This document shows, piece by piece, positions 2,987 through 56,986 of a stretch of 64,000 bases of DNA. Each line of letters begins with the position of its first letter. The first letter of the stretch is position 1. The translations under genes and the position numbers were made by a program. The notes under the pieces are model-generated. The model was not told the origin of the DNA. It saw only the letters and a program-made list of their open reading frames with translations, and did no database searches. Source of the stretch: a virus (lineage: Duplodnaviria; Caudoviricetes); the IMG/VR virus record IMGVR_UViG_3300042445_001485; one strand, written 5' to 3'.

Positions 2987-3347
2987 ATGAAATAGGCATC
3001 CATCCTAGTTGTCGTAGGTCTGTTTCAATTTCTTCGGTTACTTGCCCTTCGGGCACAAATCCTTCGCCTGTGCGACAACCAAGACCAAATCCTTCTTCTT
3101 CGGATCCAATGCCCGAGCAGTACCAATCTATGTAATTACCTTGCTGTCTAATGGTGGCAATGATGCCTCCGGCATAGCGCCAACTGCAATGCCACAGTTG
3201 TTTTTTCAATATGGCCATGACTTCTAGTCGTTGCCACTGCATATTACACAAGGCCGCATAGAGGTTTTGTGCATAGGTGTCATTGGCCCTGACCTTGTCA
3301 CAGATCCAGGTGGTATTTTTTAGATCGGTTTCTAAATTATGATCCAT
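2973..3347 (-). CDS. hypothetical phage protein
   Basis: 124-aa ORF directly behind a consensus promoter. Confidence 0.75.
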   Translation of the reverse strand: MDHNLETDLKNTTWICDKVRANDTYAQNLYAALCNMQWQRLEVMAILKKQLWHCSWRYAGGIIATIRQQGNYIDWYCSGIGSEEEGFGLGCRTGEGFVPEGQVTEEIETDLRQLGWMPISYDNL

Positions 3348-3352
3348 ACCTT

Positions 3353-3381
3353 ATTATAAACTATTTTAAATTTTGTGTCAA
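3353..3381 (-). promoter_or_regulatory. sigma70 consensus promoter
   Basis: TTGACA-N17-TATAAT, 5 nt before ATG 3347. Confidence 0.85.
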
Positions 3382-3427
3382 CTAAAAAGTGGTCTACGGC
3401 GTTGTATATATGTAACATAAAAAACAA

Positions 3428-3772
3428 ATGAAATTACTTGCCATTTTAATTGCTGTATCAGTATTTGCGGTAGAACCTGCTGGCGCGGTAGTAACGGTCA
3501 CACCAAAAACGGCCAAAGCGCATCTACCACGAGTGCCTAGAGTCAAACTGCTTCGTAGTAATCCACACAGGTTTACTGCCATTCGGTTGCAGGGTACCAA
3601 TCCGTATGATGCACCAGATGATGATTTCCTTTGTGTCAGTAGTGCTCGCAAACCAAAAGTTATCAATCCCAATCTTGTGGATGACGATGAAGAACTTTCG
3701 GAATATGTGACCATACGATTGATGGTGGCCCGTGCCAGAGCCATGCAAAAGTACAGAGAAGTCCGTGCATAA
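3428..3772 (+). CDS. hypothetical protein with signal peptide
   Basis: MKLLAILIAVSVFA N-terminus; followed by a terminator. Confidence 0.65.
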   Translation: MKLLAILIAVSVFAVEPAGAVVTVTPKTAKAHLPRVPRVKLLRSNPHRFTAIRLQGTNPYDAPDDDFLCVSSARKPKVINPNLVDDDEELSEYVTIRLMVARARAMQKYREVRA

Positions 3773-3773
3773 A

Positions 3774-3796
3774 AAAAGGCCCTAAGGGGCCTTTTT
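3774..3796. terminator. bidirectional intrinsic terminator
   Basis: aaaaggccctaaggggccttttt between convergent genes. Confidence 0.85.
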
Positions 3797-4003
3797 GGTT
3801 AATGTAACTTGCCGGGTGCGTTCATCAATGCCCCAAGTCAGCTCATCACCGATTCGCCAACCATTGGCCTCCAATGCGTCTGGGGGCAAGGGCATAACAA
3901 TGTCGCCAGTTTCGGGATCCTCCTCCAACTCAACCGTCCAAGTTGTGGCAGATTGGCGAGTAATCCGGGCATCTAGCACACTTGCCTCAATCTGACTTTT
4001 CAT
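3782..4003 (-). CDS. AbrB/MazE-like small protein (putative)
   Basis: IVMPLPPDALEANGWRIGDELTW resembles the swapped-hairpin AbrB pattern. Confidence 0.55.
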   Translation of the reverse strand: MKSQIEASVLDARITRQSATTWTVELEEDPETGDIVMPLPPDALEANGWRIGDELTWGIDERTRQVTLTKKAP

Positions 4004-4292
4004 TTATAATCCTAACATCAGTTACATTCATCACACGAAATGATCTCCATTCGTTTTTGTCTAGACAGAATACGCTAAGTGTTTCGGGTTTGTATAAACG
4101 AGTTTGGTGATGTTCGTTTACGGCCCGAGCAGGCATTGCCGCCGCTCTAAGGGTGCAAGGCATGGTGCGTACAGAGCCATCTACCTTGGTAAAAGTAATT
4201 TCGCAATCGTGTTCACTTAACAGATTACGGATATAACGATTGCGACTATCAGCATCACCTGCTAATTCTAGTACTATTTCAGTGTCGGTCAT
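3987..4292 (-). CDS. SH3/WYL-like fold small phage protein
   Basis: ITFTKVDGSVRTMPCTL...WRSFR pattern typical of T4-like phage WYL_2-type proteins. Confidence 0.7.
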   Translation of the reverse strand: MTDTEIVLELAGDADSRNRYIRNLLSEHDCEITFTKVDGSVRTMPCTLRAAAMPARAVNEHHQTRLYKPETLSVFCLDKNEWRSFRVMNVTDVRIINEKSD

Positions 4293-4459
4293 TTGTCGCC
4301 CTTGTTACGACTAGTGCGTTGTCTAGAACCGTCTTGTTCGATTACAACATAACTACGCACAAAGGCACCACGAGTATGGTTGTCTAAAATCAGTGACGCG
4401 GCACGTTTTACACTCTTGCTGATCTTAACAGCTTTTGGATCATATCCTCTACAGGTCAT
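4289..4459 (-). CDS. 56-aa hypothetical protein (not in ORF track)
   Basis: Hand-translated MTCRGYDPKAVKISKSVKRAAS...; overlaps both neighbours in operon fashion. Confidence 0.55.
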   Translation of the reverse strand: MTCRGYDPKAVKISKSVKRAASLILDNHTRGAFVRSYVVIEQDGSRQRTSRNKGDK

Positions 4460-4700
4460 TTTGTGTTTCCTTTTTAAATTGTTTACGACAGGCTCGTTTC
4501 ATAGCAGGAGTAAAGTCTGGATGTATCTCTGCTACACTGCAATTATACACATGATCTCTATCGTTGAGCAAGAGCTTTTGAACAATATTAATGCCAAGCC
4601 AAATCAAACCAAACAATGCAATCACAATGACTACATCTAATACCATAACTGTTAGTTTAAATAATTTTGTGTTTTCTTTGCTGGTGATTACAAATTTCAC
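4449..4700 (-). CDS. small membrane protein
   Basis: Single transmembrane segment; coupled to neighbours. Confidence 0.6.
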   Translation of the reverse strand: MKFVITSKENTKLFKLTVMVLDVVIVIALFGLIWLGINIVQKLLLNDRDHVYNCSVAEIHPDFTPAMKRACRKQFKKETQNDL

Positions 4701-4891
4701 GCCAATGTGTCTACCTTTGTTCCTAACCCTCGACTTTTACCACCGATATCAAGTCGCCTTAGACGCATACGCTCGTTATCAATGATGTCTGCGTTAATCT
4801 TTAATGATTGATGTTTGAGTTCCATTATGTGCTGATCTAACTGCTGGAGTTCCATTTGTTTCTGGTAAGATTGGACTACATCAATTCTCAT
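4697..4891 (-). CDS. small hypothetical protein
   Basis: ATGA overlap with the ligase stop. Confidence 0.55.
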   Translation of the reverse strand: MRIDVVQSYQKQMELQQLDQHIMELKHQSLKINADIIDNERMRLRRLDIGGKSRGLGTKVDTLA

Positions 4892-6189
4892 AATTTCTCT
4901 CCTATTTCAAAGCCACGGAATCGAAGGAACCTAGGAAAGCGCAAACTGTAAGTACCATCTTGGTTCTGTGTTATGGCATCGGCTCGCACTTCGACCACCT
5001 GGCCTGCACACTTGGCGCGATCCTGCCAAAAGTCTTCTCGCTGTTGGTCACTGAGTCCTGAACCTACATTGACTTGAATGGCTCGTTCATCGTCAACACC
5101 TTCACATACCAGGGCACCTAACTTGCCCACATTGCGTCCTGTACCTTCTTCTGTATTTACGACAGTTAGGCTAACTTCAATAAAGGGTTTTTGTTTTAAC
5201 CATGCGGTGCTTCTTTTACATTCGTAAACTGCATAAGGATCTTTGATCATAATGCCTTCGTATCCGCCTGCAATGGCATCTGCATTGATTTGGGTAAAAC
5301 GATCGGCACCCTCATCGGTATCTAGGTTCACAAGTTCCTGTCCCACAACTGACACATTGGGCATATGGTCTGCAATTGGCAAGTACCAGGCCAATAATTG
5401 CTCACTGCGTTTGTGCTGTGGACAACTGCTGACGCCTGATTGAAATTCCTTCAGTGGTAAGATGTCAAACAGGTTCAGCACCGCATCGTCGGTTCGGGCA
5501 TCACCTTTGCGATGAATCTGCCGCATCAAGTCTTGAAAGTTTCCCGACATGATCTCACCATCTAACACTATTGGCTCTCGAAGAAACACCGCATGTTTGG
5601 CAATCTGTCGTTTAACTTCTTCAAAGTTCACCAGTTCTTTGCCATTGCGACTGTACTGATCAACTTGACCATTTGGGTACACAATGGTAATCACACGCAC
5701 ACCATCAAGTTTGACTTCGATGACTTTTTCGCCAGAAACTTTACCTTCATGCTTGGCACCATCAAATGCCAATTGGCACTCAAACACCGGCACATGAAAC
5801 TTGGGATCTGCATGTTTGTTAATAGTACTATCACTAGTGCCACAACGCATGTCTTTGATCAAGATGCGTCGATACCACAGATTCCATTCTGCTTCACGGG
5901 CATTCATACGCAGATAGTTCACTGCGGTAACGGCAGTATTGCCAGTGATACGGCGGTCGGCCAAGTCCTGTGCTGTTTTCCAAAACACTTCGCTAGTAAG
6001 TCCTTTGCCATCACCTGTTTTCTCGTCGACTTTTTTAACACCAAATGTGATCATGGCATCATATGCCGCACGGAATCCGCGGAACAATTCGGCATTGTCT
6101 GCCGCACTCTCTCGACGAATGATGGCTTCTTTTACTAGACGACTGTTGTCGGCTTCCAGCTCGGCAACAACTTCCCAGGGTTTGTTCAT
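4888..6189 (-). CDS. lig: ATP-dependent DNA ligase
   Basis: Motif I KLDGVR, LDGE, YEGIMIK, WLK-K and C-terminal OB fold SLRFPRF. Confidence 0.96.
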   Translation of the reverse strand: MNKPWEVVAELEADNSRLVKEAIIRRESAADNAELFRGFRAAYDAMITFGVKKVDEKTGDGKGLTSEVFWKTAQDLADRRITGNTAVTAVNYLRMNAREAEWNLWYRRILIKDMRCGTSDSTINKHADPKFHVPVFECQLAFDGAKHEGKVSGEKVIEVKLDGVRVITIVYPNGQVDQYSRNGKELVNFEEVKRQIAKHAVFLREPIVLDGEIMSGNFQDLMRQIHRKGDARTDDAVLNLFDILPLKEFQSGVSSCPQHKRSEQLLAWYLPIADHMPNVSVVGQELVNLDTDEGADRFTQINADAIAGGYEGIMIKDPYAVYECKRSTAWLKQKPFIEVSLTVVNTEEGTGRNVGKLGALVCEGVDDERAIQVNVGSGLSDQQREDFWQDRAKCAGQVVEVRADAITQNQDGTYSLRFPRFLRFRGFEIGEKL

Positions 6190-6458
6190 TTTGTTTCTCC
6201 ATAGTGGATTGATTGGCCGGGCTTGATGCCCAAATAGTTCATGGCCATGATCAACATGAAATTGGCATGTTCTTTATTTTTGGGCAGTACAACTCTTTCA
6301 CCTTCATTCAGTTGGCGTAGTTCTTCTTTGAGTTGTTCAAGTTCAAACACCAGGGGTCGAACTTCTAACCTCATAACTTCACGGGCTATGGCTTCAGCTT
6401 GACTTCTAGTAACTGGTACGGTATCTATCATAATTGTTCCTCTTGTAGGGTTTCCCAC
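6186..6458 (-). CDS. hypothetical protein
   Basis: ATGA coupling to the ligase. Confidence 0.6.
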   Translation of the reverse strand: MGNPTRGTIMIDTVPVTRSQAEAIAREVMRLEVRPLVFELEQLKEELRQLNEGERVVLPKNKEHANFMLIMAMNYLGIKPGQSIHYGETK

Positions 6459-6799
6459 ATCATTCGCTTTTCACACTCGGCGCGAAACTGCTCGCGAAGC
6501 TCAGGGCTTTTACACCAGGCCTTGATGTTGGCATAACTGCCCTGTGCCTTGTTAGGTACATTTTCTCGTATCCACATGGCAGTGGCCCAAAACACCGTAC
6601 GGCTCTGCCTGTCTGTGTTAAACAGGGCCCGTTCATATTCATGTGCCAACATGGCCTCCATGTGTCCACCGGGCAACAAGCCATCAAACAAGTAACGGTC
6701 CATTGCGGCCATTTGGTTGTCACTCCAACGCATGCCAACATATCGGGCATCGTGGTACATGCTACGATTATAATCAATTGCGTTGGGCTTGTAAATCAT
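6428..6799 (-). CDS. hypothetical phage protein
   Basis: Start at ATG 6799, overlapping the upstream stop. Confidence 0.65.
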   Translation of the reverse strand: MIYKPNAIDYNRSMYHDARYVGMRWSDNQMAAMDRYLFDGLLPGGHMEAMLAHEYERALFNTDRQSRTVFWATAMWIRENVPNKAQGSYANIKAWCKSPELREQFRAECEKRMMWETLQEEQL

Positions 6800-7149
6800 T
6801 TTGCACTTTCGAATTCTTTGACATGTCGACAAGCACCGCGGAATTGGAATCCGCTACAAGTGCAATTATACACATTTTCTTCTAAGGTCACAATGTATAT
6901 ATCACCTTTTGAACCTGTGACTTCCCAACGATTGGGATTTGTAGTAACTTCAATCTCAAAGTTAGGTTGATTTTTTAATGCAACAAATTTACGACCGCGG
7001 AGATCAATGCGTATGGCCGTTTTGAATGTTTTGATTTCTGTTGAGCCGGGTTTAATGTATGCATACATTTTGGTCTTGGAGTCATCCAACAAGTAAACAC
7101 CGTTGCCAAATGGATCAGCCCATGTAGTAGTTTCTTGATAAAATTTCAT
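6796..7149 (-). CDS. SWIM zinc-finger protein
   Basis: C-terminal CTCSGFQFRGACRH (CxC...CxH). Confidence 0.8.
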   Translation of the reverse strand: MKFYQETTTWADPFGNGVYLLDDSKTKMYAYIKPGSTEIKTFKTAIRIDLRGRKFVALKNQPNFEIEVTTNPNRWEVTGSKGDIYIVTLEENVYNCTCSGFQFRGACRHVKEFESAK

Positions 7150-7382
7150 CGTGTCTCCTCAACCATACGCATGAATGCCCGCATCATGGTCTGTGCCTGT
7201 GCCAGGTTCTGCTCGGGTGTCTGCTGTTGCACACAGGCCGCTGTCACCTGCTGACGATGAAACTGTGCCAGGTTTGCTTGACAAGCGGTTTGTTCTGCAT
7301 AGGTGCCAACTGTGGTGATACCTGTTGCAAGGATGATAATTAGATTGTACATGTTAGTCGGCTCTTGAGCAGGCATACGCAT
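7146..7382 (-). CDS. small hypothetical protein
   Basis: Operon position; start probably about 7352. Confidence 0.5.
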   Translation of the reverse strand: MRMPAQEPTNMYNLIIILATGITTVGTYAEQTACQANLAQFHRQQVTAACVQQQTPEQNLAQAQTMMRAFMRMVEETR

Positions 7383-7671
7383 TCAGGCCTGCCTTACGCA
7401 GAACTTCGGCAAACGCATGAGCACCGGCTTCTTTGATGTCCATACTCTGTGTGAACGAACCACCGGGGTTCCAAACACTCAGGCATTTTGGTTTGTAATC
7501 TTTCTTGAAACCTGCCGCAATCAATTCCTTGGCCTCTTTGGAGTTGGTACGATCCACAAACACATCAACCCAGGCAAAACCACAGTAGCCAGGTTCACCA
7601 TGACGAGCACGAAAGTCTGCTTCGGCTTGGCGGGCGGCTTCGAAAGCTTCTTGGACAATTTGATTCAACAT
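7354..7671 (-). CDS. early hypothetical protein
   Basis: AAAAAGGAG Shine-Dalgarno and promoter directly upstream of ATG 7671. Confidence 0.8.
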   Translation of the reverse strand: MLNQIVQEAFEAARQAEADFRARHGEPGYCGFAWVDVFVDRTNSKEAKELIAAGFKKDYKPKCLSVWNPGGSFTQSMDIKEAGAHAFAEVLRKAGLNAYACSRAD

Positions 7672-7701
7672 GTCTGACTCCTTTTTAATTACAATACAAC
7701 A

Positions 7702-7730
7702 ATTATACAAAAGATCGCCTTTTCGGGCAA
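7702..7730 (-). promoter_or_regulatory. early promoter cassette
   Basis: TTGCCC-N17-TATAAT with the repeated spacer gaaaaggcgatctttt. Confidence 0.75.
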
Positions 7731-7731
7731 A

Positions 7732-8007
7732 TCACATGCTCCAAAAAGTTTCACTAGCAGGCGAGCAACAATTTGGGGTGTTGACATCTTCTTCAAATGT
7801 TTTGCCCGACATCAAATTTGTGCGGGTGACCATCTTGGGCTTGTAGTGTTTGGTGTCAATGATGTTGAGTTGATCAACTGTATAACCTGCCTTGTTGCAC
7901 AAGCGGGTTCTTGTTGCACGAGCTGACCCAAAAGTTTTGTAGGCTCTAGTACGATTTGGACCGTCTGTAACAATAAGTCCGGTACCTCTAGCGACAATAT
8001 AAAACAT
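7732..8007 (-). CDS. early hypothetical protein
   Basis: AAAAAGGAG Shine-Dalgarno; C-terminal TPNCCSPASETFWSM. Confidence 0.8.
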   Translation of the reverse strand: MFYIVARGTGLIVTDGPNRTRAYKTFGSARATRTRLCNKAGYTVDQLNIIDTKHYKPKMVTRTNLMSGKTFEEDVNTPNCCSPASETFWSM

Positions 8008-8036
8008 CTCAACTCCTTTTTAGCTTCAATACATGT

Positions 8037-8065
8037 ATTGTATAATAGATGCCATTCGGAGTCAA
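8037..8065 (-). promoter_or_regulatory. early promoter cassette
   Basis: TTGACT-N17-TACAAT, repeat family member. Confidence 0.85.
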
Positions 8066-8100
8066 ATTTTGGGCAAATTGGGTGTTGTAAATGAGCCACA

Positions 8101-8130
8101 AAAAAGCCCCGCAAATCTTGCAGGGCTTTT
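8101..8130 (-). terminator. porin terminator
   Basis: aaaaagccc...gggctttt hairpin. Confidence 0.75.
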
Positions 8131-8165
8131 GTAGTACTTTAGTATTACTTTTTGATCAGTAATAC
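8131..8165. repeat. AGTACT/AGTATTACT-rich repeat
   Basis: gtagtactttagtattactttt is identical to 57088-57109. Confidence 0.75.
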
Positions 8166-8172
8166 TTTGGTA

Positions 8173-9270
8173 TTAGAACGTGTGACGCAAGCCAACTGCG
8201 GTGCGCTTTGTTACACCAGCGGTGGCTGTGGCACCTGCGGTGTTGGTGTCAGCATCACGAGTGTCAAAACGTGCATACAAGTTGGTTCTCTTGCTGAGTT
8301 CATGATCCACACCGTAACCAAGAATTTTCTTGTCTACATTGGCTGTGCTCTTTTCATTGCTGGAACCAGTTGACCACATGACGCTGGTAGCACCAACGGT
8401 GTACTTGGCACCAAACATTTGTCCAGTCTGGTCGATAGCGGTGGCTGTGTTTTGTTTTTCTGTCCAACGACCACCATACACAGTTGCGGCACCAATCTTG
8501 TAGTTGGCAGACAACATGCTGAGAGTGTTGTTGGTACCATCAGTCAAGGCCTGTGAACCAGTGGCAATGAATGATGCAGTGGTAGTGGCCAAAGTGCCTG
8601 ACTGCTCAATGCGTTGAGCGGCATACTGCACACTCACGGGACCATTGGCATATTTTACACCATAGTCAACCACACTCTGAGCATTGACGCTGGCACTTGG
8701 TGGCACATACAAATAAGAACCACTTACACCTGCCACTGCTGGAGACTCATAACGAATGGCTCCATTGAAGCGAGTAGGTGCAGATTGTGCTGTGTGAGTT
8801 GCTGTGGCACTGTAACGAGTAAAGATGTTACCGTTTGATCCATAACCTGAACCAATGGCTGTACCAAACACAGATCCGTTGCCCCAGGCATCTAGGATGT
8901 TGGAATTCACACGACCAAGTTTCACAGTGCCCCAATTGGCTTCTGTGCCTATAAAGGCTTCTTGACCCACACCCACAGTGCCTGCTGTGGTTGAGTTGTA
9001 TGTGGTGCCTTCAACTCCGGCACCATTGATGAAATCAGGTGTTAGTTGTAGTTTGAAATTGGCACGGAGTCCGCCGCCTAGATCATCTGTACCGGCAATG
9101 TTCAGCACCGTAGTGGCTGAATTATTGGCTGCAAGACCTTTGGTGTTGACACCAGTGGCTGCATTGGTAAACAACAGGCCGGTATCAACCAGGCCAGTGA
9201 TATTGACAGCACTTTGAGCAAACACAGAGGTGGCCGCAAGTGCAATCATGATTGCGAAGATTTTCTTCAT
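8173..9270 (-). CDS. Gram-negative trimeric porin (betaproteobacterial-type)
   Basis: Signal peptide MKKIFAIMIALAATSVFAQ, alternating beta-strands, RFNGAIRYESP, LSKRTNLYA and terminal VGLRHTF (C-terminal Phe). Confidence 0.93.
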   Translation of the reverse strand: MKKIFAIMIALAATSVFAQSAVNITGLVDTGLLFTNAATGVNTKGLAANNSATTVLNIAGTDDLGGGLRANFKLQLTPDFINGAGVEGTTYNSTTAGTVGVGQEAFIGTEANWGTVKLGRVNSNILDAWGNGSVFGTAIGSGYGSNGNIFTRYSATATHTAQSAPTRFNGAIRYESPAVAGVSGSYLYVPPSASVNAQSVVDYGVKYANGPVSVQYAAQRIEQSGTLATTTASFIATGSQALTDGTNNTLSMLSANYKIGAATVYGGRWTEKQNTATAIDQTGQMFGAKYTVGATSVMWSTGSSNEKSTANVDKKILGYGVDHELSKRTNLYARFDTRDADTNTAGATATAGVTKRTAVGLRHTF

Positions 9271-9317
9271 TGAGTTTTCCTTTTTAATAAAAATCATGGT
9301 CTTTCGATCCATGTGTT

Positions 9318-9346
9318 ATTATATAGCCTTCTGAACTGAAGAGCAA
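9318..9346 (-). promoter_or_regulatory. sigma70-type promoter of the porin
   Basis: TTGCTC-N17-TATAAT. Confidence 0.7.
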
Positions 9347-9376
9347 TATATTCTGTTAATTTTGGCTAAATTTCTG

Positions 9377-9916
9377 CTATTTGCCAAAAATCTTCTTTAG
9401 TCTACCAAAAGTCACATTGTCTTTTTTAACCGGATCGGTAATAACCATGCTGTAACACCAGCGTTCTTCACCGGGGTTTACTATATTGTGTGGTATTCCC
9501 ACTTGTACCAAACTGGGGTTCTTAATTGTTGCTGTATGCAGTAGTTGAACTTCGGTTGGATCAAATATGGTATACTTGCTACCCACTGGTGTTTCTAACA
9601 TAGCCTTTGGCAAACTGTTTGTAATTCTATACCAATGCATGGTAGACCCTTTGCCACCGAACACCCAGTTAATTTTACCCCTATCACCGGGTCCGTTGTC
9701 AATATGAATACCTAGCGTGTACGGAGTCTCAGGCGGGCCATAAAATAGCTCTAGTCGTTCAAACAATAACCCGTGCCCTTTTAACAGTTTAATCCAGGCC
9801 GGATTAACTGCATTAGAATCTGCATCTATATGACAGCGTTGACTATAATGGGGGTGTTCATAGTCTGGAACAAACAGTGGAGGTTGTAAGCCTAGCGGTA
9901 TACAAAATAAACTCAT
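9377..9916 (-). CDS. HxD...H cupin / 2OG-Fe(II) oxygenase-like protein
   Basis: GIHID ... PHNI; start at ATG 9916, 4 nt after TAAATA. Confidence 0.65.
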   Translation of the reverse strand: MSLFCIPLGLQPPLFVPDYEHPHYSQRCHIDADSNAVNPAWIKLLKGHGLLFERLELFYGPPETPYTLGIHIDNGPGDRGKINWVFGGKGSTMHWYRITNSLPKAMLETPVGSKYTIFDPTEVQLLHTATIKNPSLVQVGIPHNIVNPGEERWCYSMVITDPVKKDNVTFGRLKKIFGK

Positions 9917-44472: not shown

Positions 44473-45429
44473 TTAGGCTTGCTTACGGATAGCATCAACC
44501 AATCCTGGTGTGAACATGTCACGGAACTGATCATAAACTACAGCAGTTTGTGCTTTGGCCCAAGCCAATTCTTCTGTGCTCAAAGGTTGAATCTTTGCAC
44601 CTTCGGCAGTTAGCTTTTGCTTGGCAATTTCGCCATCACGGATTGTTTCTAAACGCTCTTCACGCCCGGCTTCAATTGCGGCCTGCTTGATAACAGCCTT
44701 GACCGCAGGGCTCAGACTTTCCCAGAAACGGTCACCAATGATCATAGTGGTCAAGAACAAACTGTGTTCTGTGTCTAACACAGTCTTGGTAACAGCATTT
44801 TGACCCAATGGGTAAATACGTGGATAATTAGTTTCTGCACCTTCACAGTTACCAGCTGTCATGTTGTCTACGATTTCTTCTAGTTCGCAAACAAATGGGT
44901 TCAATCCCAATGCACGGTAAGTTGCTTGTGCGACTGGGTTACGGTTGCTACGCTGTGTAGTTCCAGCCAACTCTGCCAGTGTACTGACTTCTTTGTTGGA
45001 AATCATTTGACGGAAACCACCCGAGTATGTGTAGCTCAAGCCACGAACATTGCTCTTTTCTTTCAATTTGGCCAACAAGCCTTCGCCAACTTCGCCTTCT
45101 AACACGCGAGTTGCGTGGTCATGACCTGCAAAGATGTATGGCAAATCAAATGCCAACATGTCTTGCTCATAGTGTTCAGCCAACCATGTGGTGTACATTT
45201 GGCTCATTTCAATCTTGCCTTGATCCATTAGATCTAACAAGTCGTGTTTTGTAACCAAGACGCCATCGTTATACTTGTGACTGTATTCAGTCAAAGTCAT
45301 GATTTCAACTTGAACTTTTTCGCTGTCATTGCTGATAGCGGCATTCAAGTGGTCTTGGAAGTCTTTGGCGGCACGAACAAATAGATTTAGTGGCTCGTGT
45401 GCGATTACCCAGCGGATTTTTGTAGTCAT
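44473..45429 (-). CDS. dctP: TRAP transporter DctP-family solute-binding protein, lacking a signal peptide
   Basis: FDLPYIF, GGFRQ, R-x-x-x-N-P, G-x-E-x-N-Y, HSLF; GGAG Shine-Dalgarno before ATG 45429. Confidence 0.85.
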   Translation of the reverse strand: MTTKIRWVIAHEPLNLFVRAAKDFQDHLNAAISNDSEKVQVEIMTLTEYSHKYNDGVLVTKHDLLDLMDQGKIEMSQMYTTWLAEHYEQDMLAFDLPYIFAGHDHATRVLEGEVGEGLLAKLKEKSNVRGLSYTYSGGFRQMISNKEVSTLAELAGTTQRSNRNPVAQATYRALGLNPFVCELEEIVDNMTAGNCEGAETNYPRIYPLGQNAVTKTVLDTEHSLFLTTMIIGDRFWESLSPAVKAVIKQAAIEAGREERLETIRDGEIAKQKLTAEGAKIQPLSTEELAWAKAQTAVVYDQFRDMFTPGLVDAIRKQA

Positions 45430-45444
45430 ATATGGTTTCTCCAT

Positions 45445-50400: not shown

Positions 50401-50880
50401 TTATTTACTTTGTGTCAAGAGTTTTTGGCTTTCTGCGGCAACCACACGGCTACGCAGACCCGAACTGGAGAACGAATGATCTCTGCCGTTGAACACTAGT
50501 TCAATCCCGCGCATTCCACATTCCTCCATGCCAGAGAAATTTATATGTTGATATTCCACACCCAAGATGCGTACATCCACAGGCAAGATCAACAACAGGT
50601 CCCTAAGGTCCTGTTCAGTTTGATACACAACAACTTCGTCCACATAACGGCATGCGGCCAATTGTATTTGTCGTTCCACAATACTTTGTACAGGTTTGTT
50701 TTTGGTATCCGGGCGATCGATTGTGGGATCTGTTTGCAAGCCACAAATTAGATAATCGCAATGATTCTTGGCTTCACTCAACATGGCAATATGTCCGGCA
50801 TGGAGCATGTCGAATGTGCTGAATGTTATACCAATTTTTTTACCTGCGTCTTTGAGTTCTCTAATGTGATTGAATATCAT
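50401..50880 (-). CDS. cytidylyltransferase (TagD/RfaE-like)
   Basis: TFDMLHAGH (HxGH), ICGLQTD, SSSGLR. Confidence 0.92.
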   Translation of the reverse strand: MIFNHIRELKDAGKKIGITFSTFDMLHAGHIAMLSEAKNHCDYLICGLQTDPTIDRPDTKNKPVQSIVERQIQLAACRYVDEVVVYQTEQDLRDLLLILPVDVRILGVEYQHINFSGMEECGMRGIELVFNGRDHSFSSSGLRSRVVAAESQKLLTQSK

Positions 50881-51188
50881 GTTTCTATTTCAAGTTTGAC
50901 ACTCAGCGGGAATCCGTGACTGCGAGCCAGCAAGGTGACTTCGACACCTTTTTGTTCTGCAATCTCATAGGGTAGTACTGCTACCACCGCCGATCCTGCT
51001 TCGTGAATCTTTTCTGTGATTGCCACAGCGGCCGATTCATCATAGTAAAACATTATCTTTAATGTTTCCACAACAAATTCCATGGTGGTTACTTCATCAT
51101 TGATGTAGATCACTCTATATTGACTAGGTTCTTTGAGTTTAACCTTAGGAGCAATCTTTGGTTTATTTTTAGTTTCAGGTTCTGCCAT
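50877..51188 (-). CDS. clpS: ClpS adaptor protein
   Basis: VIYINDEVTTMEFVV, IHEAGSAVV, FPL. Confidence 0.93.
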   Translation of the reverse strand: MAEPETKNKPKIAPKVKLKEPSQYRVIYINDEVTTMEFVVETLKIMFYYDESAAVAITEKIHEAGSAVVAVLPYEIAEQKGVEVTLLARSHGFPLSVKLEIET

Positions 51189-51239: not shown

Positions 51240-51683
51240 TTACTTTGTGAAAGTAATTGCAATCTTTTTGGGCTTGTCTTCTTCAGGCACTAGTTGTTCT
51301 AGTGCAATAGAAAGAATACCGTTTTTAACAGTGGCCCCACAAACTTCAATATGTTCTGCCAATGGAAATGTGCGAGCAAAATTGCGGGCACTAATACCTT
51401 TGTGTAGGTATTCAACTTCTGTTTCGTCTTTGGCTTTGTCGCCACGGACTGTCAAGATGTTGTCCTTTAGTTCTACATCAATTTCGCTGTCAGCAAAGCC
51501 AGCAACTGCCAACTCAATCACATAGTGTGTGTCGTCAATTTTGATTACATTATGTGGGGGATAGTTGCCATCGCTTTTGCTGTTGGCAAAAGTGCGATTT
51601 AACTGTGCAAACAATTGGTCAAAGCCAATGGCATGACGGTGTAGGCTAGGTAAATCGAGGGTGTGAAGTGTGAATTGTGTCAT
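51240..51683 (-). CDS. small heat-shock protein Hsp20 (IbpA-like)
   Basis: YPPHN, ELAVAGF, YLHKGISARNF, NGILSI. Confidence 0.95.
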   Translation of the reverse strand: MTQFTLHTLDLPSLHRHAIGFDQLFAQLNRTFANSKSDGNYPPHNVIKIDDTHYVIELAVAGFADSEIDVELKDNILTVRGDKAKDETEVEYLHKGISARNFARTFPLAEHIEVCGATVKNGILSIALEQLVPEEDKPKKIAITFTK

Positions 51684-51774: not shown

Positions 51775-52014
51775 TTAATACAACTTTTTTGGTAATTCTT
51801 GGTCACGCAACTTTTTACGCCAACGGGCCTGTGCCGCACCTCGTTTGCGTTTGCGTTCGGTTGTGGGTTTTTCAAAATGTTGGCGTTCTTTTATTTCTTC
51901 AAGTAGTCCCGACTCTTGGATTTTTTTCTTGAATTTGCGTAGAGCTTTATCCACTTGATCATTTTGAACAATTACGCTACATCCGCGAATTGGTTTTGGT
52001 TTGTAATATGACAT
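51775..52014 (-). CDS. rpsU: ribosomal protein bS21
   Basis: VDKALRKFKKK...GLLEEIKERQHFEKPTTERKRKR.AA..R. Confidence 0.93.
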   Translation of the reverse strand: MSYYKPKPIRGCSVIVQNDQVDKALRKFKKKIQESGLLEEIKERQHFEKPTTERKRKRGAAQARWRKKLRDQELPKKLY

Positions 52015-52025
52015 GTACTATTTAC

Positions 52026-53516
52026 TTAAATTTTACCTTGTTGTTGATTTTTTAAATATTCAGCTATTTGGGTTTGTTCTGTTTCACTGAGCTCGTCCGG
52101 ATCGTACTCGCCCGAAGCAATTTTATCTACCAGATGTTTGATATATGCTTCATTAAATACGTAGTTATCTGTTAGTGATTTATCACTTTCAACCCACTTG
52201 GACCCATTCCATTTGAACAATTTACTGGGTAGATAATCTGTACGCAAAAACATGTCACCCTTGTTTGGCTTCAACGGAAACGATGTTCCGAAGTCAGCAT
52301 TTGATGCGTTGCCTAAACTGGGATGATTATCTGCTAGGGCACTTAATTCTGGAAACTGTTGTTTAAACGAGTCAATGCTATAACTACGGCCGTTATGCAT
52401 TAAATGATCGCTGTTTGTTAAAAATACCAAGTTATCGTCGGGTGGTAGCGGTTCATCTAATGCCGCAACTTCCGCTTCAGTAAAAGGTCTAGTTTCAACA
52501 GCGGAAATCTCCCCAGGGGCGAGTATAGCCATTGCGGCCGCATCTTCGTGTATGGCATGTGTGCTGGGTGGGGGTGGCGCCACCATGGGCATAAGATTCT
52601 TAAAATGTTCAAATGGCCGTTTTAAATATGCCAAAGGGTCAAACTTAGTTTGAGGTTCATCGGGCTCGTTCTGAGCTATGGGCTCAGCGACTTCCGGCGC
52701 TGTTGGTGCCTCTACCGTTGGTTCATCTAAAATTGATCCCGATTCTTTCTTGTCTCGTTCTTCTTGGGCCCACTTGATGCTTTGTTGTGCGGCTAGTATT
52801 AATACCAGTGCCAAGGGATCAAACACCAGCACAATAATAATGATCACCAGCCTGACAGCTCGTTCTAATACATTCTGATCAGGATTGTCGCCATACACCA
52901 GGGCCGCTATGTATTTTATAGGACCGACTTCTGATTCGATCTTCCTGTTCTCTGCGGCGAGAGGTGCCCGGTCTTCATTAAGTTGACTAATTTTTTTCTG
53001 TTCGGCCTCGATCTCGGCTTGTAAACGGGTTCGCTCTTTTTGCTGAGATCTGCGTATAGAGACTGCTTTATCGGCACCCTTTTCATCTGAGCTTCGGCCC
53101 ATGACTTGATCCACTGCCTCATCATACTGTTTAAGAACTTTGCGGTTAGCATCGATATTGTCCCTTGCTATTTTGATTTTTTCATCGTATATGGCTACCC
53201 GGGCCATTGAATCACCTGATACTAAACTTTGATCACTGTGTGCTTTACTCAGGAATCCAAAGATGCCCATGCTTGTTAACAGCATTAAGAATGCCACAGC
53301 CGGAACAAGATAAAACTTGTACAACAGGCTGGCTCGTTCCCAATACATCTTTAGCCAAATAGCCGCAGTGACTTTGCCAACTTCTAGGCTGGCACCCATG
53401 ATCATGATGGGGATCACAGCGGCTGAGAAAATGGCAGTTAGGCCTATAATACTGTAGTAGGCCGCAATGGCACTGATGATCAGTGCAACGATTAGAGTGA
53501 AGTATCCAAATATCAT
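52026..53516 (-). CDS. membrane-anchored coiled-coil phage protein
   Basis: Several N-terminal TMs, coiled coil, further TM, C-terminal KGDMFLRTDYLP. Confidence 0.85.
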   Translation of the reverse strand: MIFGYFTLIVALIISAIAAYYSIIGLTAIFSAAVIPIMIMGASLEVGKVTAAIWLKMYWERASLLYKFYLVPAVAFLMLLTSMGIFGFLSKAHSDQSLVSGDSMARVAIYDEKIKIARDNIDANRKVLKQYDEAVDQVMGRSSDEKGADKAVSIRRSQQKERTRLQAEIEAEQKKISQLNEDRAPLAAENRKIESEVGPIKYIAALVYGDNPDQNVLERAVRLVIIIIVLVFDPLALVLILAAQQSIKWAQEERDKKESGSILDEPTVEAPTAPEVAEPIAQNEPDEPQTKFDPLAYLKRPFEHFKNLMPMVAPPPPSTHAIHEDAAAMAILAPGEISAVETRPFTEAEVAALDEPLPPDDNLVFLTNSDHLMHNGRSYSIDSFKQQFPELSALADNHPSLGNASNADFGTSFPLKPNKGDMFLRTDYLPSKLFKWNGSKWVESDKSLTDNYVFNEAYIKHLVDKIASGEYDPDELSETEQTQIAEYLKNQQQGKI

Positions 53517-53583
53517 AGTCGTATATTTATAGGTTTTAGTCCTATAGTATACGCAGATAAATGGGAGTTGTCAATGATTATGG

Positions 53584-53735
53584 TTAATCTACTAACCAGG
53601 TTAAACCAATAGCAGACCTTGTTAAGGAGCCACCACTGCTGACAAACACACTGATTGTTTCGCCAGGTGCTAGTGTTAGATTATAATCCAACAGGTCAAA
53701 TGTAGGTTGGTCGAGTTAGGATTTTGTACACCCAT
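53584..53735 (-). pseudogene. internally deleted gene remnant
   Basis: Coupled ATG giving MGVQNPNST, joined out of frame to a C-terminus LDYNLTLAPGETISVFVSS...LTWLVD*. Confidence 0.5.
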
Positions 53736-54595
53736 TATGCTTTAATACCAATAAAGAGTTGACTAGTACGATCAGCAGTCCATGTGTTGCTGTTAGTAGA
53801 ACCATACCCATTATTGATTGCTGTTCTTACGGTGGCATTTAATGCAGAGGCATCCCAAACAGTAAGTACCACAATGTTACCACTGGCAACTCCGTTTAAT
53901 GCGTTTGCCAACAAAGTTAAATCACCAGCAACTCCATATGTGTCATAATTTGCTGTACTAACTAAATCACCATAAGAATCCAACACCACCATATTATGGC
54001 CTCTATCGCCAATATTCAATAGTTCAATGTCGTTTACAACTACTCTGCTATTCTGATATTCAGGTACATCCCATGTTGATGCATACACATAAATCTTATT
54101 ACCACTCACATACTGTGTGGTTGTTAATGCCGCGGTTGTTCCAAATGCTTCGTAGAATGTAAATGCGGATACTGTTTCAATCCAAGGACGACCAGTAACA
54201 AGCCCGCCAACATTGGGATTGTCCACGATAGAGTTGCCCGCAAATTGTGTGGGCAATGATGTAAGGTCATAAGTGGCTCTTGGTTTGCTTGATGCCGCCC
54301 GGTCTAGTGCGGCCAAATCTAATTTGGCTTTTTGTCTAATTTCTCTAGAAGCCAATCTGCCAATCTTGTTGTGTGTTCTTAGTGCTGTGCCAGTGATGAT
54401 GCTCAAACTAGCAAGTGTGGCAGATTCCGTCAAAATGGTTTCTGCCTTAGATATGTCGTACCAAGTAGAATTAAACCCACGGGCTGTGTTGATGGCTGTT
54501 TTTAACTGTGCCACGGTCTGACCATTGTCGATGGTGTAGCTGTCATAAACGGCTGTGTTTAACAAGCTCTGTACTGTAATGGTGATATTGGCCAT
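53735..54595 (-). CDS. ubiquitin-like domain plus ILEI/PANDER (GG-lectin)-like domain protein
   Basis: N-terminus TVAQLKTAI...ILTESATLASLSI; C-terminus GHNMVVLD...YDT...IVVLTVWD...LFIGIK. Confidence 0.65.
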   Translation of the reverse strand: MANITITVQSLLNTAVYDSYTIDNGQTVAQLKTAINTARGFNSTWYDISKAETILTESATLASLSIITGTALRTHNKIGRLASREIRQKAKLDLAALDRAASSKPRATYDLTSLPTQFAGNSIVDNPNVGGLVTGRPWIETVSAFTFYEAFGTTAALTTTQYVSGNKIYVYASTWDVPEYQNSRVVVNDIELLNIGDRGHNMVVLDSYGDLVSTANYDTYGVAGDLTLLANALNGVASGNIVVLTVWDASALNATVRTAINNGYGSTNSNTWTADRTSQLFIGIKA

Positions 54596-54647
54596 ATTTG
54601 TCCCTGTATAGGATATTTAGCCAAAAGACCACCCGCCGGGGCGGTGT

Positions 54648-54969: not shown

Positions 54970-55482
54970 TCATTCTGCAACTCCAAACTGTTTTATCAAT
55001 CGTGAGATATCGGTAATATCGTTTTTTGTAATATTAAACCATTCTCCTCTTACCCATTTTTTTTCAAAATGCTTGTGTAATTTTTTTTCAATAATATCTA
55101 CTCGGTTCAGCAAGTCTGATTTCCAAACTAATTTAAGATCCAACCAATGCGCTGTCTGTAAAGATCTTTTTCTTTTATCTGTGTTTGATCCCGAAGTTAT
55201 TCCAATTTTATAAGGTGTTCCTGGGATATCTGGACCTATAACATAAATGGTTCCAGTAACAGCACCTGCCATGACCAATGTAGTTTTTTGACTACGAACT
55301 AGTCCTTTGGCCTTTATTGCGCTACGCCATTGTGTGGCATATTGTTTGGCACAGGATTTACATTGGGGAATAGCAAGTTGATTCAAATTTTTAGCAACCT
55401 TCTTGAGACCGCTAGGAAAAAAATACTCTTCTGTTGCTTCCAGTAACAGTTTACATTTTGAGCAGGTGTAATGTAATTTCAT
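54970..55482 (-). CDS. T5orf172 / GIY-YIG-like endonuclease with N-terminal Zn finger
   Basis: CSKC...CKSC; IYVIG, YKIGIT, EKKLH, GEWF; start MKLHY. Confidence 0.8.
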   Translation of the reverse strand: MKLHYTCSKCKLLLEATEEYFFPSGLKKVAKNLNQLAIPQCKSCAKQYATQWRSAIKAKGLVRSQKTTLVMAGAVTGTIYVIGPDIPGTPYKIGITSGSNTDKRKRSLQTAHWLDLKLVWKSDLLNRVDIIEKKLHKHFEKKWVRGEWFNITKNDITDISRLIKQFGVAE

Positions 55483-55842
55483 TCTAATTCCTATCCACTG
55501 GTAAACAAACATATTGTCGAGCAGTGGTATTGGGTTGTTTAGCAGATACACAATCCTGTTTGGTTCGATAATGCTCGACCACTTGATAATCCTTGATAGG
55601 ACCATTATTGGATCCCGGAGACAACAATACAACAACCAATACCCAATTGAGCATCACAGACCTTTGATAAAGTCTATAACTGCACGGGCTTGAGTTAAAT
55701 CCATGTCGGTGTCGTCTGCTGTTTTATCTGCCGGACGGAATACATAGTGTGTATTCTTAATGGCATACAGACTGGTGTTGTTGGTGGGTACAACATTGAA
55801 TCGGTCATAGCTCATTTGGCGTTTCTTGTTCATACTTGCTCC

Positions 55843-56659: not shown

Positions 56660-56986
56660 TTAGTGGCTGTTCAGAGCAGGATTAAATTCGGCAATCAATT
56701 CACGCTCACGAGCATGAGCAGGCTTGCGTCCACGCACAAACTCCACAATGCCGTAAGTGTGAGCCAATGTGCCGTATTCGCGAATTGACTTACACAAAGC
56801 CCAATCTTTGTTTTCTGTAACTGCACGGCGTACATGTTTCTGCATACGCACTTTTAGAGCTTTACGAACTTGTTGTCCGCAAACTGTAATACCAATGTAT
56901 TGTTGGCCTGTTGTTGTATTGGTAATACAGTAAACGACATGCTTGGTATCTTGGCGTCTTTTTCGGGGTTGCTTTTTAAGTTCCAT
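56660..56986 (-). CDS. GIY-YIG nuclease-family protein
   Basis: VVYCITN...YIG, R...H, E...I...P.LN. Confidence 0.85.
   Translation of the reverse strand: MELKKQPRKRRQDTKHVVYCITNTTTGQQYIGITVCGQQVRKALKVRMQKHVRRAVTENKDWALCKSIREYGTLAHTYGIVEFVRGRKPAHARERELIAEFNPALNSH

Follow-up and report, generated by a model that had tools for sequence, protein, structure and literature searches.

The T5 pb10 and T4 Hoc proteins are capsid/tail decoration proteins in which an anchor is combined with a display domain. Among the lectin-type domains, POMGnT1 binds β-linked GlcNAc through R129, D179, and R207, and sugar binding has also been described for FAM3C and FAM3A (PMC9802357). The Arg and the Asp are essential for sugar binding by POMGnT1, and both are retained in the CBM of a streptococcal phage Tal protein (PMC9437275; PMC9802357). 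This ILEI/GG domain is common in phage tail fibers and receptor-binding proteins, including the gp35 hinge connectors of T4-type phages (PMC9704909; PMC9437275), and earlier work cited in PMC9704909 had long since recorded it in phage gp35. These reports contradict the view, taken in a preliminary description of the locus presented here, that the domain is mostly eukaryotic. A β-grasp domain is known from the lambda protein TAPI (gpI), which has a ThiS/MoaD-like domain, a conserved terminal Gly, a Gly-rich linker, and a JAB/NlpC peptidase as its neighbor (PMC1779556).

The protein that we describe, P0001, is encoded in a 64-kb window (the whole stretch of DNA that was analyzed, 64,000 nucleotides) from an uncultured large phage. 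An identical protein is encoded on 17 contigs from several samples, the longest among those listed being 210 kb. The gene and its parts are the following:

53735..54595, minus strand: Ubl-B-ILEI gene P0001, an ORF of 286 aa, stop codon included
54368..54595, minus strand: P0001 residues 1-76, ubiquitin-family β-grasp domain (Ubl) without Gly-Gly, from profile and model
54170..54367, minus strand: P0001 residues 77-142, module B, from homologue alignment and model
53738..54169, minus strand: P0001 residues 143-286, FAM3/PANDER-type globular lectin domain, from Pfam, Foldseek, and profile
53741-54004, minus strand: Pfam ILEI core (PF15711), P0001 residues 198-285

The preliminary description had seen two domains. 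Both of its folds were right, and the AlphaFold and Foldseek comparison that it had proposed as a check, once run, recovered a β-grasp and an ILEI-like fold, but a middle module of ~67 residues, which we call B, had been overlooked. The AlphaFold2 model of P0001 has a pLDDT of 93.4 and a pTM of 0.77. An exhaustive phmmer search made the mosaic composition of the protein visible: many proteins match residues 1-140 only, many others cover 76-142 only (with their own residues 4-70), and many 143-285 only. The three domain identities and the modular architecture are established.

We found no paralogues of the Ubl, B, or ILEI part elsewhere in the window. The P0001 region gave no megablast match against 50,697 phage records, and tblastn of the whole protein against phage records recovered the ILEI part only, in a "tail protein" of an Alteromonas AD45 phage. 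The P0001 cluster already bears the label "Interleukin-like EMT inducer" in UniProt/BFVD and the ESM Atlas, and 22% of the members of its ESM Atlas cluster carry PF00240; full-text literature searches retrieved nothing published about Ubl-B proteins as a family. New here are the conserved sugar-site residues, the fold of the neighboring gene product c1, the quantified synteny and promoter motif, the single-branch distribution of Ubl, and the scar of a c1 deletion.

An ILEI-type head with a candidate sugar site

The Pfam model PF15711 matched P0001 residues 198-285 with an E value of 2.3e-11 and a score of 44.5 bits (cut-off 27). When a profile of the C-terminal 144 residues was compared with the PDB, it found the POMGnT1 stem (E 2.7e-7), FAM3C (2.8e-6), and FAM3A (1.3e-4), as well as FAM3B. 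Foldseek against the PDB retrieved FAM3C, FAM3B, FAM3A, and the POMGnT1 stem (TM 0.53-0.60 by target), and the head superposed on 5lc4, 2yop, 2yoq, 7ecq, and 5ggn with an rmsd of 2.2-3.6 Å over 127-137 residues. The C-terminal ILEI/PANDER-type lectin-like domain named in the preliminary description is thereby upheld by PF15711, profile, and Foldseek alike.

In the HMMER alignment, R198 and D248 of P0001 fall on POMGnT1 R129 and D179 (RGH vs. RGIH and VWDAS vs. VKDEG, respectively). R198 is invariant; D248 is invariant in our alignment A2 and at least 90% conserved in alignment A5. Conservation of these sugar-site residues is an observation. A third residue, R276, is a putative counterpart of POMGnT1 R207, placed solely by how far it lies from the F-[IV]-G motif, and together R198, D248, and R276 are candidate sugar-binding residues of the head.

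P0001 thus resembles FAM3A-D and the POMGnT1 stem in passing the ILEI cut-off, in its three-layer fold, and in the conserved Arg and Asp, and it resembles T4-type gp35 and CBM_1 of the streptococcal phage Tal in having an ILEI-type domain of a kind known in phage adhesion proteins. Unlike the ILEI copies of phage fibers, the P0001 head is carried not inside a long trimeric fiber but on a small protein of 286 aa with a new anchor module.

Module B is the core of the family

Module B (~67 residues, 77-142) consists of a helix (84-101) and a hairpin (116-125) and ends in a GRPW motif. Its mean pairwise identity is 0.72, vs. 0.65 for Ubl, and the first half of the head shares top conservation with it. 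We obtained no family match for B in Pfam or PHROGs, tblastn with B alone against the 50,697 phage records returned chance matches only (E of at least 5), none of the cultured phages in that set carrying B, and a B feature search of the ESM Atlas gave no usable match. In IMG/VR, 480 loci carry B, the contigs reaching 383 kb in length. The module may stand by itself (68-72 aa) or be combined into Ubl-B (~139 aa), B-ILEI (~215 aa), or Ubl-B-ILEI, and its C-terminal partners are all lectin-type: ILEI, LamG (Laminin_G_3), PA14/GLEYA, and Calx-beta. Proteins that have no Ubl start with M-[AS]-x-N-G-I-S, three residues ahead of the invariant Asn76.

For quantitative comparison we used 83 non-redundant loci, comprising the best 80 of the 480 from IMG/VR together with L004, L007, and the window. 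Every one of the 83 has exactly one B gene. The architectures were distributed as Ubl-B-ILEI (13 loci), B-ILEI (21), Ubl-B (17), B alone (8), Ubl-B with another partner (9), and B with another partner (15). In a complete 360-kb relative, G001, the B, Ubl, and ILEI parts likewise occur once each, all within one gene. That there is one copy per locus is therefore an established property of the sampled family, and B, a previously undescribed module, is its true core. Headless forms (B alone and Ubl-B) make up 25 of the 83 loci, and B must therefore have a role of its own other than adhesion.

B lies next to virion structural genes in relatives

Clustering of neighboring genes across the 83 loci revealed a mobile triplet, c2 (~104 aa) followed by B and then c1, with c1 directly downstream of B in 51 loci. 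The c1 product matches phrog_1645, "virion structural protein," with an E value of 6.5e-102 and has homologues in Synechococcus myophages and in podophage HMO-2011. Its model was middling (pLDDT 63.6), and for that reason we used only the ConA-like/GH16-type jelly-roll core (Z 16.9), which resembles lectins, phage CBMs, and receptor-binding domains too; we do not call c1 an enzyme because the canonical GH16 ExDxxE motif was absent by eye. The gene order in jumbo phages is c2-B-c1-large terminase-structural protein, and in the lineage of the window the triplet sits between a ribonucleotide reductase block and the genes for c3, S21, Hsp20, and ClpS. This neighborhood of structural genes is a demonstrated feature of the family. 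A complex prediction for c1 with the Ubl-B protein of locus L010, run without controls, scored 0.00 and gives no verdict.

Two candidates were rejected in the course of these comparisons. Cyanophage S-RIM8 and HMO-2011 encode small proteins upstream of c1, which were considered as diverged forms of B or c2 and showed no similarity to them, and the N-terminal ~90 residues of c1 were considered specific to phages with B until the N-terminus of cyanophage c1 was found to be vaguely similar.

Some loci have unusual surroundings. In L004, a relative with 72% identity (positions 5612-9616), a gene for a 770-aa coiled-coil "minor head protein"-like product and one for a 563-aa subtilisin (Peptidase_S8) precede the Ubl-B-ILEI gene, and an enlarged c1 of 833 aa lies downstream of it; the same relative has CsgF/CsgG curli secretion genes. 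On a 7.3-kb contig from Logan (ERR10034891), the gene directly upstream of a Ubl-B-LamG gene (3233-5662 and 5662-7170, respectively) encodes an 809-aa protein with a weak precomputed match to E1_FCCH (ubiquitin-activating enzyme).

In the window itself, c1 has been reduced to a remnant between P0001 and the next conserved gene:

53584..53735, minus strand: scar of an internally deleted c1 (phrog_1645-type), two c1 remnants in different frames
52026..53516, minus strand: c3, conserved downstream neighbor of 496 aa, a multi-pass membrane and coiled-coil protein

The 219-nt "spacer" 3′ of the P0001 gene is what is left of c1. The ATG of the N-terminal remnant overlaps the P0001 stop codon (TAATG) and opens the peptide MGVQNPNSTN, which is 100% identical to c1 residues 1-10, while the C-terminal remnant, in the other frame, comprises the last ~33 codons and is 76% identical to the final 33 aa of c1 from locus L023 (E 1e-20). 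Contigs from three other samples have the identical 219-nt gap. Among the 21 Ubl-bearing forms with enough downstream sequence, c1 is missing in one, namely the window. Because only a scar of c1 is left there, the P0001 protein works without c1, and the retention and conservation of P0001 in this c1-less phage population argues that B is independent of c1.

In the c3 protein, several membrane helices at the N-terminus are combined with a coiled coil that weakly matches DUF4407, a Pro/acidic linker, and a C-terminal domain with a weak match to a "virion structural protein" PHROG. It is followed in the window by a consecutive block encoding S21 (51775-52014), Hsp20 (51240-51683), and ClpS (50877-51188), all on the minus strand; the block is conserved in many relatives, some of which add Hsp70 (L061). 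Also on the minus strand of the window are genes for a 698-aa protein with an autotransporter β-domain (PF03797; 45911-48007) and for a DctP-type TRAP solute-binding protein (44473-45444).

Transcription signals around the P0001 gene

Two features lie 5′ of the P0001 gene:

54614-54620, minus strand: CTAAATA, a T4-type late-promoter-like motif, starting 25 nt upstream of the ATG
54628..54645, minus strand: terminator-like hairpin followed by a T run, ending the upstream small-gene unit

In the direction of the gene, the hairpin (54645-54628) comes first and is followed by CTAAATAT, with the ATG 17 nt further on. Since the hairpin closes the upstream small-gene unit, the P0001 gene forms a transcription unit of its own, and the layout of hairpin and motif recurs in relatives. 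The preliminary description had spoken of a late promoter; what is present upstream is the variant CTAAATA and not TATAAATA. The c3 gene has a perfect TATAAATA (53524-53531), along with an 11/12 σ70-like promoter (53574-53546).

We counted [AC]TAAATA, in many cases right behind a terminator hairpin, within 45 nt upstream of 28 of the 55 operon-leading genes of the B family, vs. 127 of 1135 other ORFs, an approximately five-fold enrichment, and upstream of none of the 26 B genes that are preceded by c2. CTAAATA was not enriched over the window as a whole. The [AC]TAAATA before B operons may be a variant of the T4-type late promoter, and to judge from this late-promoter-like motif the P0001 gene is probably transcribed late.

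Immediately upstream of P0001, a variable region of small genes contains GIY-YIG ORFs that are probably homing endonucleases (T5orf172/MUG113-type and SegE-like; 54970-55635 and 56660-56986, minus strand). Relatives carry c2 and other genes in this place.

A putative glycan-binding protein of the virion surface

We consider it about an even bet (probability roughly 0.5) that P0001 is expressed late and serves on the virion surface as an accessory protein for binding glycans of the host or the environment, with B docking the protein, the ILEI domain binding the sugar, and Ubl acting as a fixed cap. B (residues 77-142) would be a docking or structural module that attaches the protein to a conserved component of the virion. 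The FAM3/PANDER/ILEI domain would be an exchangeable carbohydrate-binding head with an Arg/Asp(/Arg) site as in the POMGnT1 stem. Ubl would be an integral cap packed on B, neither conjugated nor cleaved, which may stabilize B or add a second contact surface. P0001 would presumably be present in the particle, either as a tail/baseplate accessory or as a capsid decoration. The glycan-binding virion decoration of the preliminary description comes close to this reading; its location on the virion is something that we, too, infer.

The virion reading is supported by the genes that adjoin B in relatives, since these include phrog_1645 and the terminase, and by the late-promoter-like motif. The conserved sugar-site residues, the modular make-up of the family, and the use of ILEI-like domains in phage tail fibers speak for it as well. 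Counted against it are the neighbors in the window, which are stress and translation genes (S21, Hsp20, and ClpS) rather than morphogenesis genes, and the lack of CTAAATA enrichment over the whole window, and because c1 has been deleted in the window phage, the best contextual argument is weaker here than in the relatives. The headless forms suggest that B may also have a structural role of its own, by analogy with decoration proteins that combine anchor and display. P0001 and its relatives are like T5 pb10 and T4 Hoc in having a small conserved anchor and an exchangeable adhesive domain as well as headless, anchor-only forms, a likeness of design alone.

Some of this context would suit a soluble lectin outside the virion, acting in the infected cell or released at lysis, an explanation that we think unlikely. 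Such a lectin might, for example, cover up receptors or exopolysaccharide on cells and debris, or attach to a sugar-carrying host molecule, and B would then serve for oligomerization or for binding to a host target. The auxiliary and stress genes that surround P0001 in the window, in the place of structural genes, and the persistence of P0001 after the loss of the neighboring structural gene c1 would both fit it. It accounts poorly for the finding that B in other genomes is strongly and repeatedly linked to the terminase and to a family of virion structural proteins, for the late-promoter-like motif, and for a constant N-terminal module with swapped heads, which is the usual design of virion adhesins; nor does the P0001 sequence have a signal peptide.

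The ubiquitin-family domain is integral and non-conjugatable

P0001 by itself gave no Pfam ubiquitin match (below reporting). A family profile built from 99 relatives found a single ubiquitin chain, with query residues 4-73 aligned to ubiquitin 1-68 (E ~1.5e-8, 37.7 bits), and the PF00240 cut-off of 25.4 bits was exceeded by the relatives P0157 (34 bits) and P0170 (26.2 bits). Foldseek against the PDB placed the Ubl part with ubiquitin, NEDD8, and ISG15 (TM 0.86-0.93 by target), on which it superposed with an rmsd of 1.1-1.4 Å over ~76 residues. The ubiquitin-like β-grasp pattern that the preliminary description had read from residues ~1-75 is borne out by the profile and by the AlphaFold2 model with Foldseek, as is its remark that a C-terminal GG is missing, since the junction reads LRTHNKI and runs directly into B.

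This junction is invariant across 24 full-length homologues apart from T74, for which conservation is at least 90%. The last β-grasp strand of the model (β5) spans residues 71-76 and the B helix starts at 84, with no tail, linker, or Gly-Gly. P0001 has Ser49 and His75 at the positions that align with the Ile44 patch of ubiquitin, and in the profile alignment K48 and K63 are replaced by Thr53 and Thr68. A stand-alone Ubl-B model from BFVD superposed on P0001 residues 1-139 with a TM of 0.97 by target, as one compact unit. The Ubl exposes no C-terminal Gly (Gly-Gly) that an E1 could activate, and because it has neither a C-terminal Gly nor a free C-terminus it cannot be adenylated. We conclude that the P0001 Ubl is a true ubiquitin-family domain that is non-conjugatable and integral to the protein.

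The domain is thus like the integral Ubl domains of the ubiquitin family (PF00240), with a fold 1.1-1.4 Å from ubiquitin/NEDD8, and unlike ubiquitin in having no Gly-Gly tail, K48, K63, or Ile44 patch. It differs from the family proper in being encoded by a bacteriophage, and from conjugatable modifiers (ubiquitin, NEDD8, BilA, and CBASS targets) in the want of an exposed C-terminal Gly. Like lambda TAPI, P0001 has an N-terminal β-grasp domain followed by a small second domain, in a morphogenesis-associated phage setting (PMC1779556). Unlike TAPI, it has no Gly or linker, its profile matches ubiquitin proper, and the relative G001 has no JAB match.

Ubl has always been found fused to B, a module that bears lectin heads. 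A tree of the B module, which has few columns, is unrooted, and comes from a sample biased towards the query, explains the presence of Ubl by a single change on one branch (support 94/87), whereas heads come and go. The clade that has no Ubl retains B and the head at the same genomic place. In the complete 360-kb relative G001, a search for cognate conjugation genes with the Pfam ThiF and Prok-JAB models gave no match.

We also considered whether P0001 could be an assembly factor with a removable Ubl, cut at LRTHNK to yield a B-ILEI protein like the natural forms that have no Ubl, as has been proposed for lambda gpI/TAPI or for eukaryotic ubiquitin fusions. The start of the Ubl-less relatives exactly three residues ahead of the invariant Asn76, the conservation of the junction in 24 of 24 homologues, the phage TAPI precedent (PMC1779556), and the subtilisin gene two genes upstream in one relative would all fit such processing. 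We nevertheless judge it improbable, given that the junction has no Gly or linker and lies inside β5 (71-76) of the modeled fold, that the complete relative G001 has no Prok-JAB match, and that Ubl and B behave as a single compact body when stand-alone Ubl-B models are superposed (TM 0.97 by target).

The preliminary description had proposed a decoy for Bil or type II CBASS. Such a decoy, or an inhibitor of these defenses, whose Ubl would bind a host E1, E2, or deubiquitinase or shield the fiber from tagging, is poorly supported and very improbable. A true ubiquitin-family fold in a phage speaks for it, and because the central tail fiber is reported to be tagged by Bil (bioRxiv 10.1101/2023.09.04.556158) a Ubl on a fiber-associated protein is suggestive. 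Against it, adenylation is impossible for a domain that lacks both a C-terminal Gly and a free C-terminus, Ser49 and His75 occupy the Ile44-patch positions, Ubl is in every case fused to B, an entire clade does without it at the same locus, and neither the Pfam ThiF (E1) model nor Prok-JAB has a match in the complete relative.

Implications

With P0001, the known building blocks of tailed phages come to include a true ubiquitin-family domain, here in a structural context that does not allow conjugation, and B is a widespread module on which phages hang interchangeable lectin heads. We see a very slim chance that the Ubl cap is a particle-displayed mimic on a fiber-associated adhesin that occupies in advance or blocks the site where Bil-type systems attach their own ubiquitin-like protein, or binds Bil enzymes, with B as a universal docking tag; if that were true, Ubl-B would be a structural counter-defense within the virion, and B would be a tag for modular display on particles. 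If B is a docking tag, it would be a marker of host-recognition or adhesion proteins in uncultured aquatic phages, an aid to host-range prediction, and possibly a display scaffold. The conserved POMGnT1-type site provides a direct, testable handle on the ligand.
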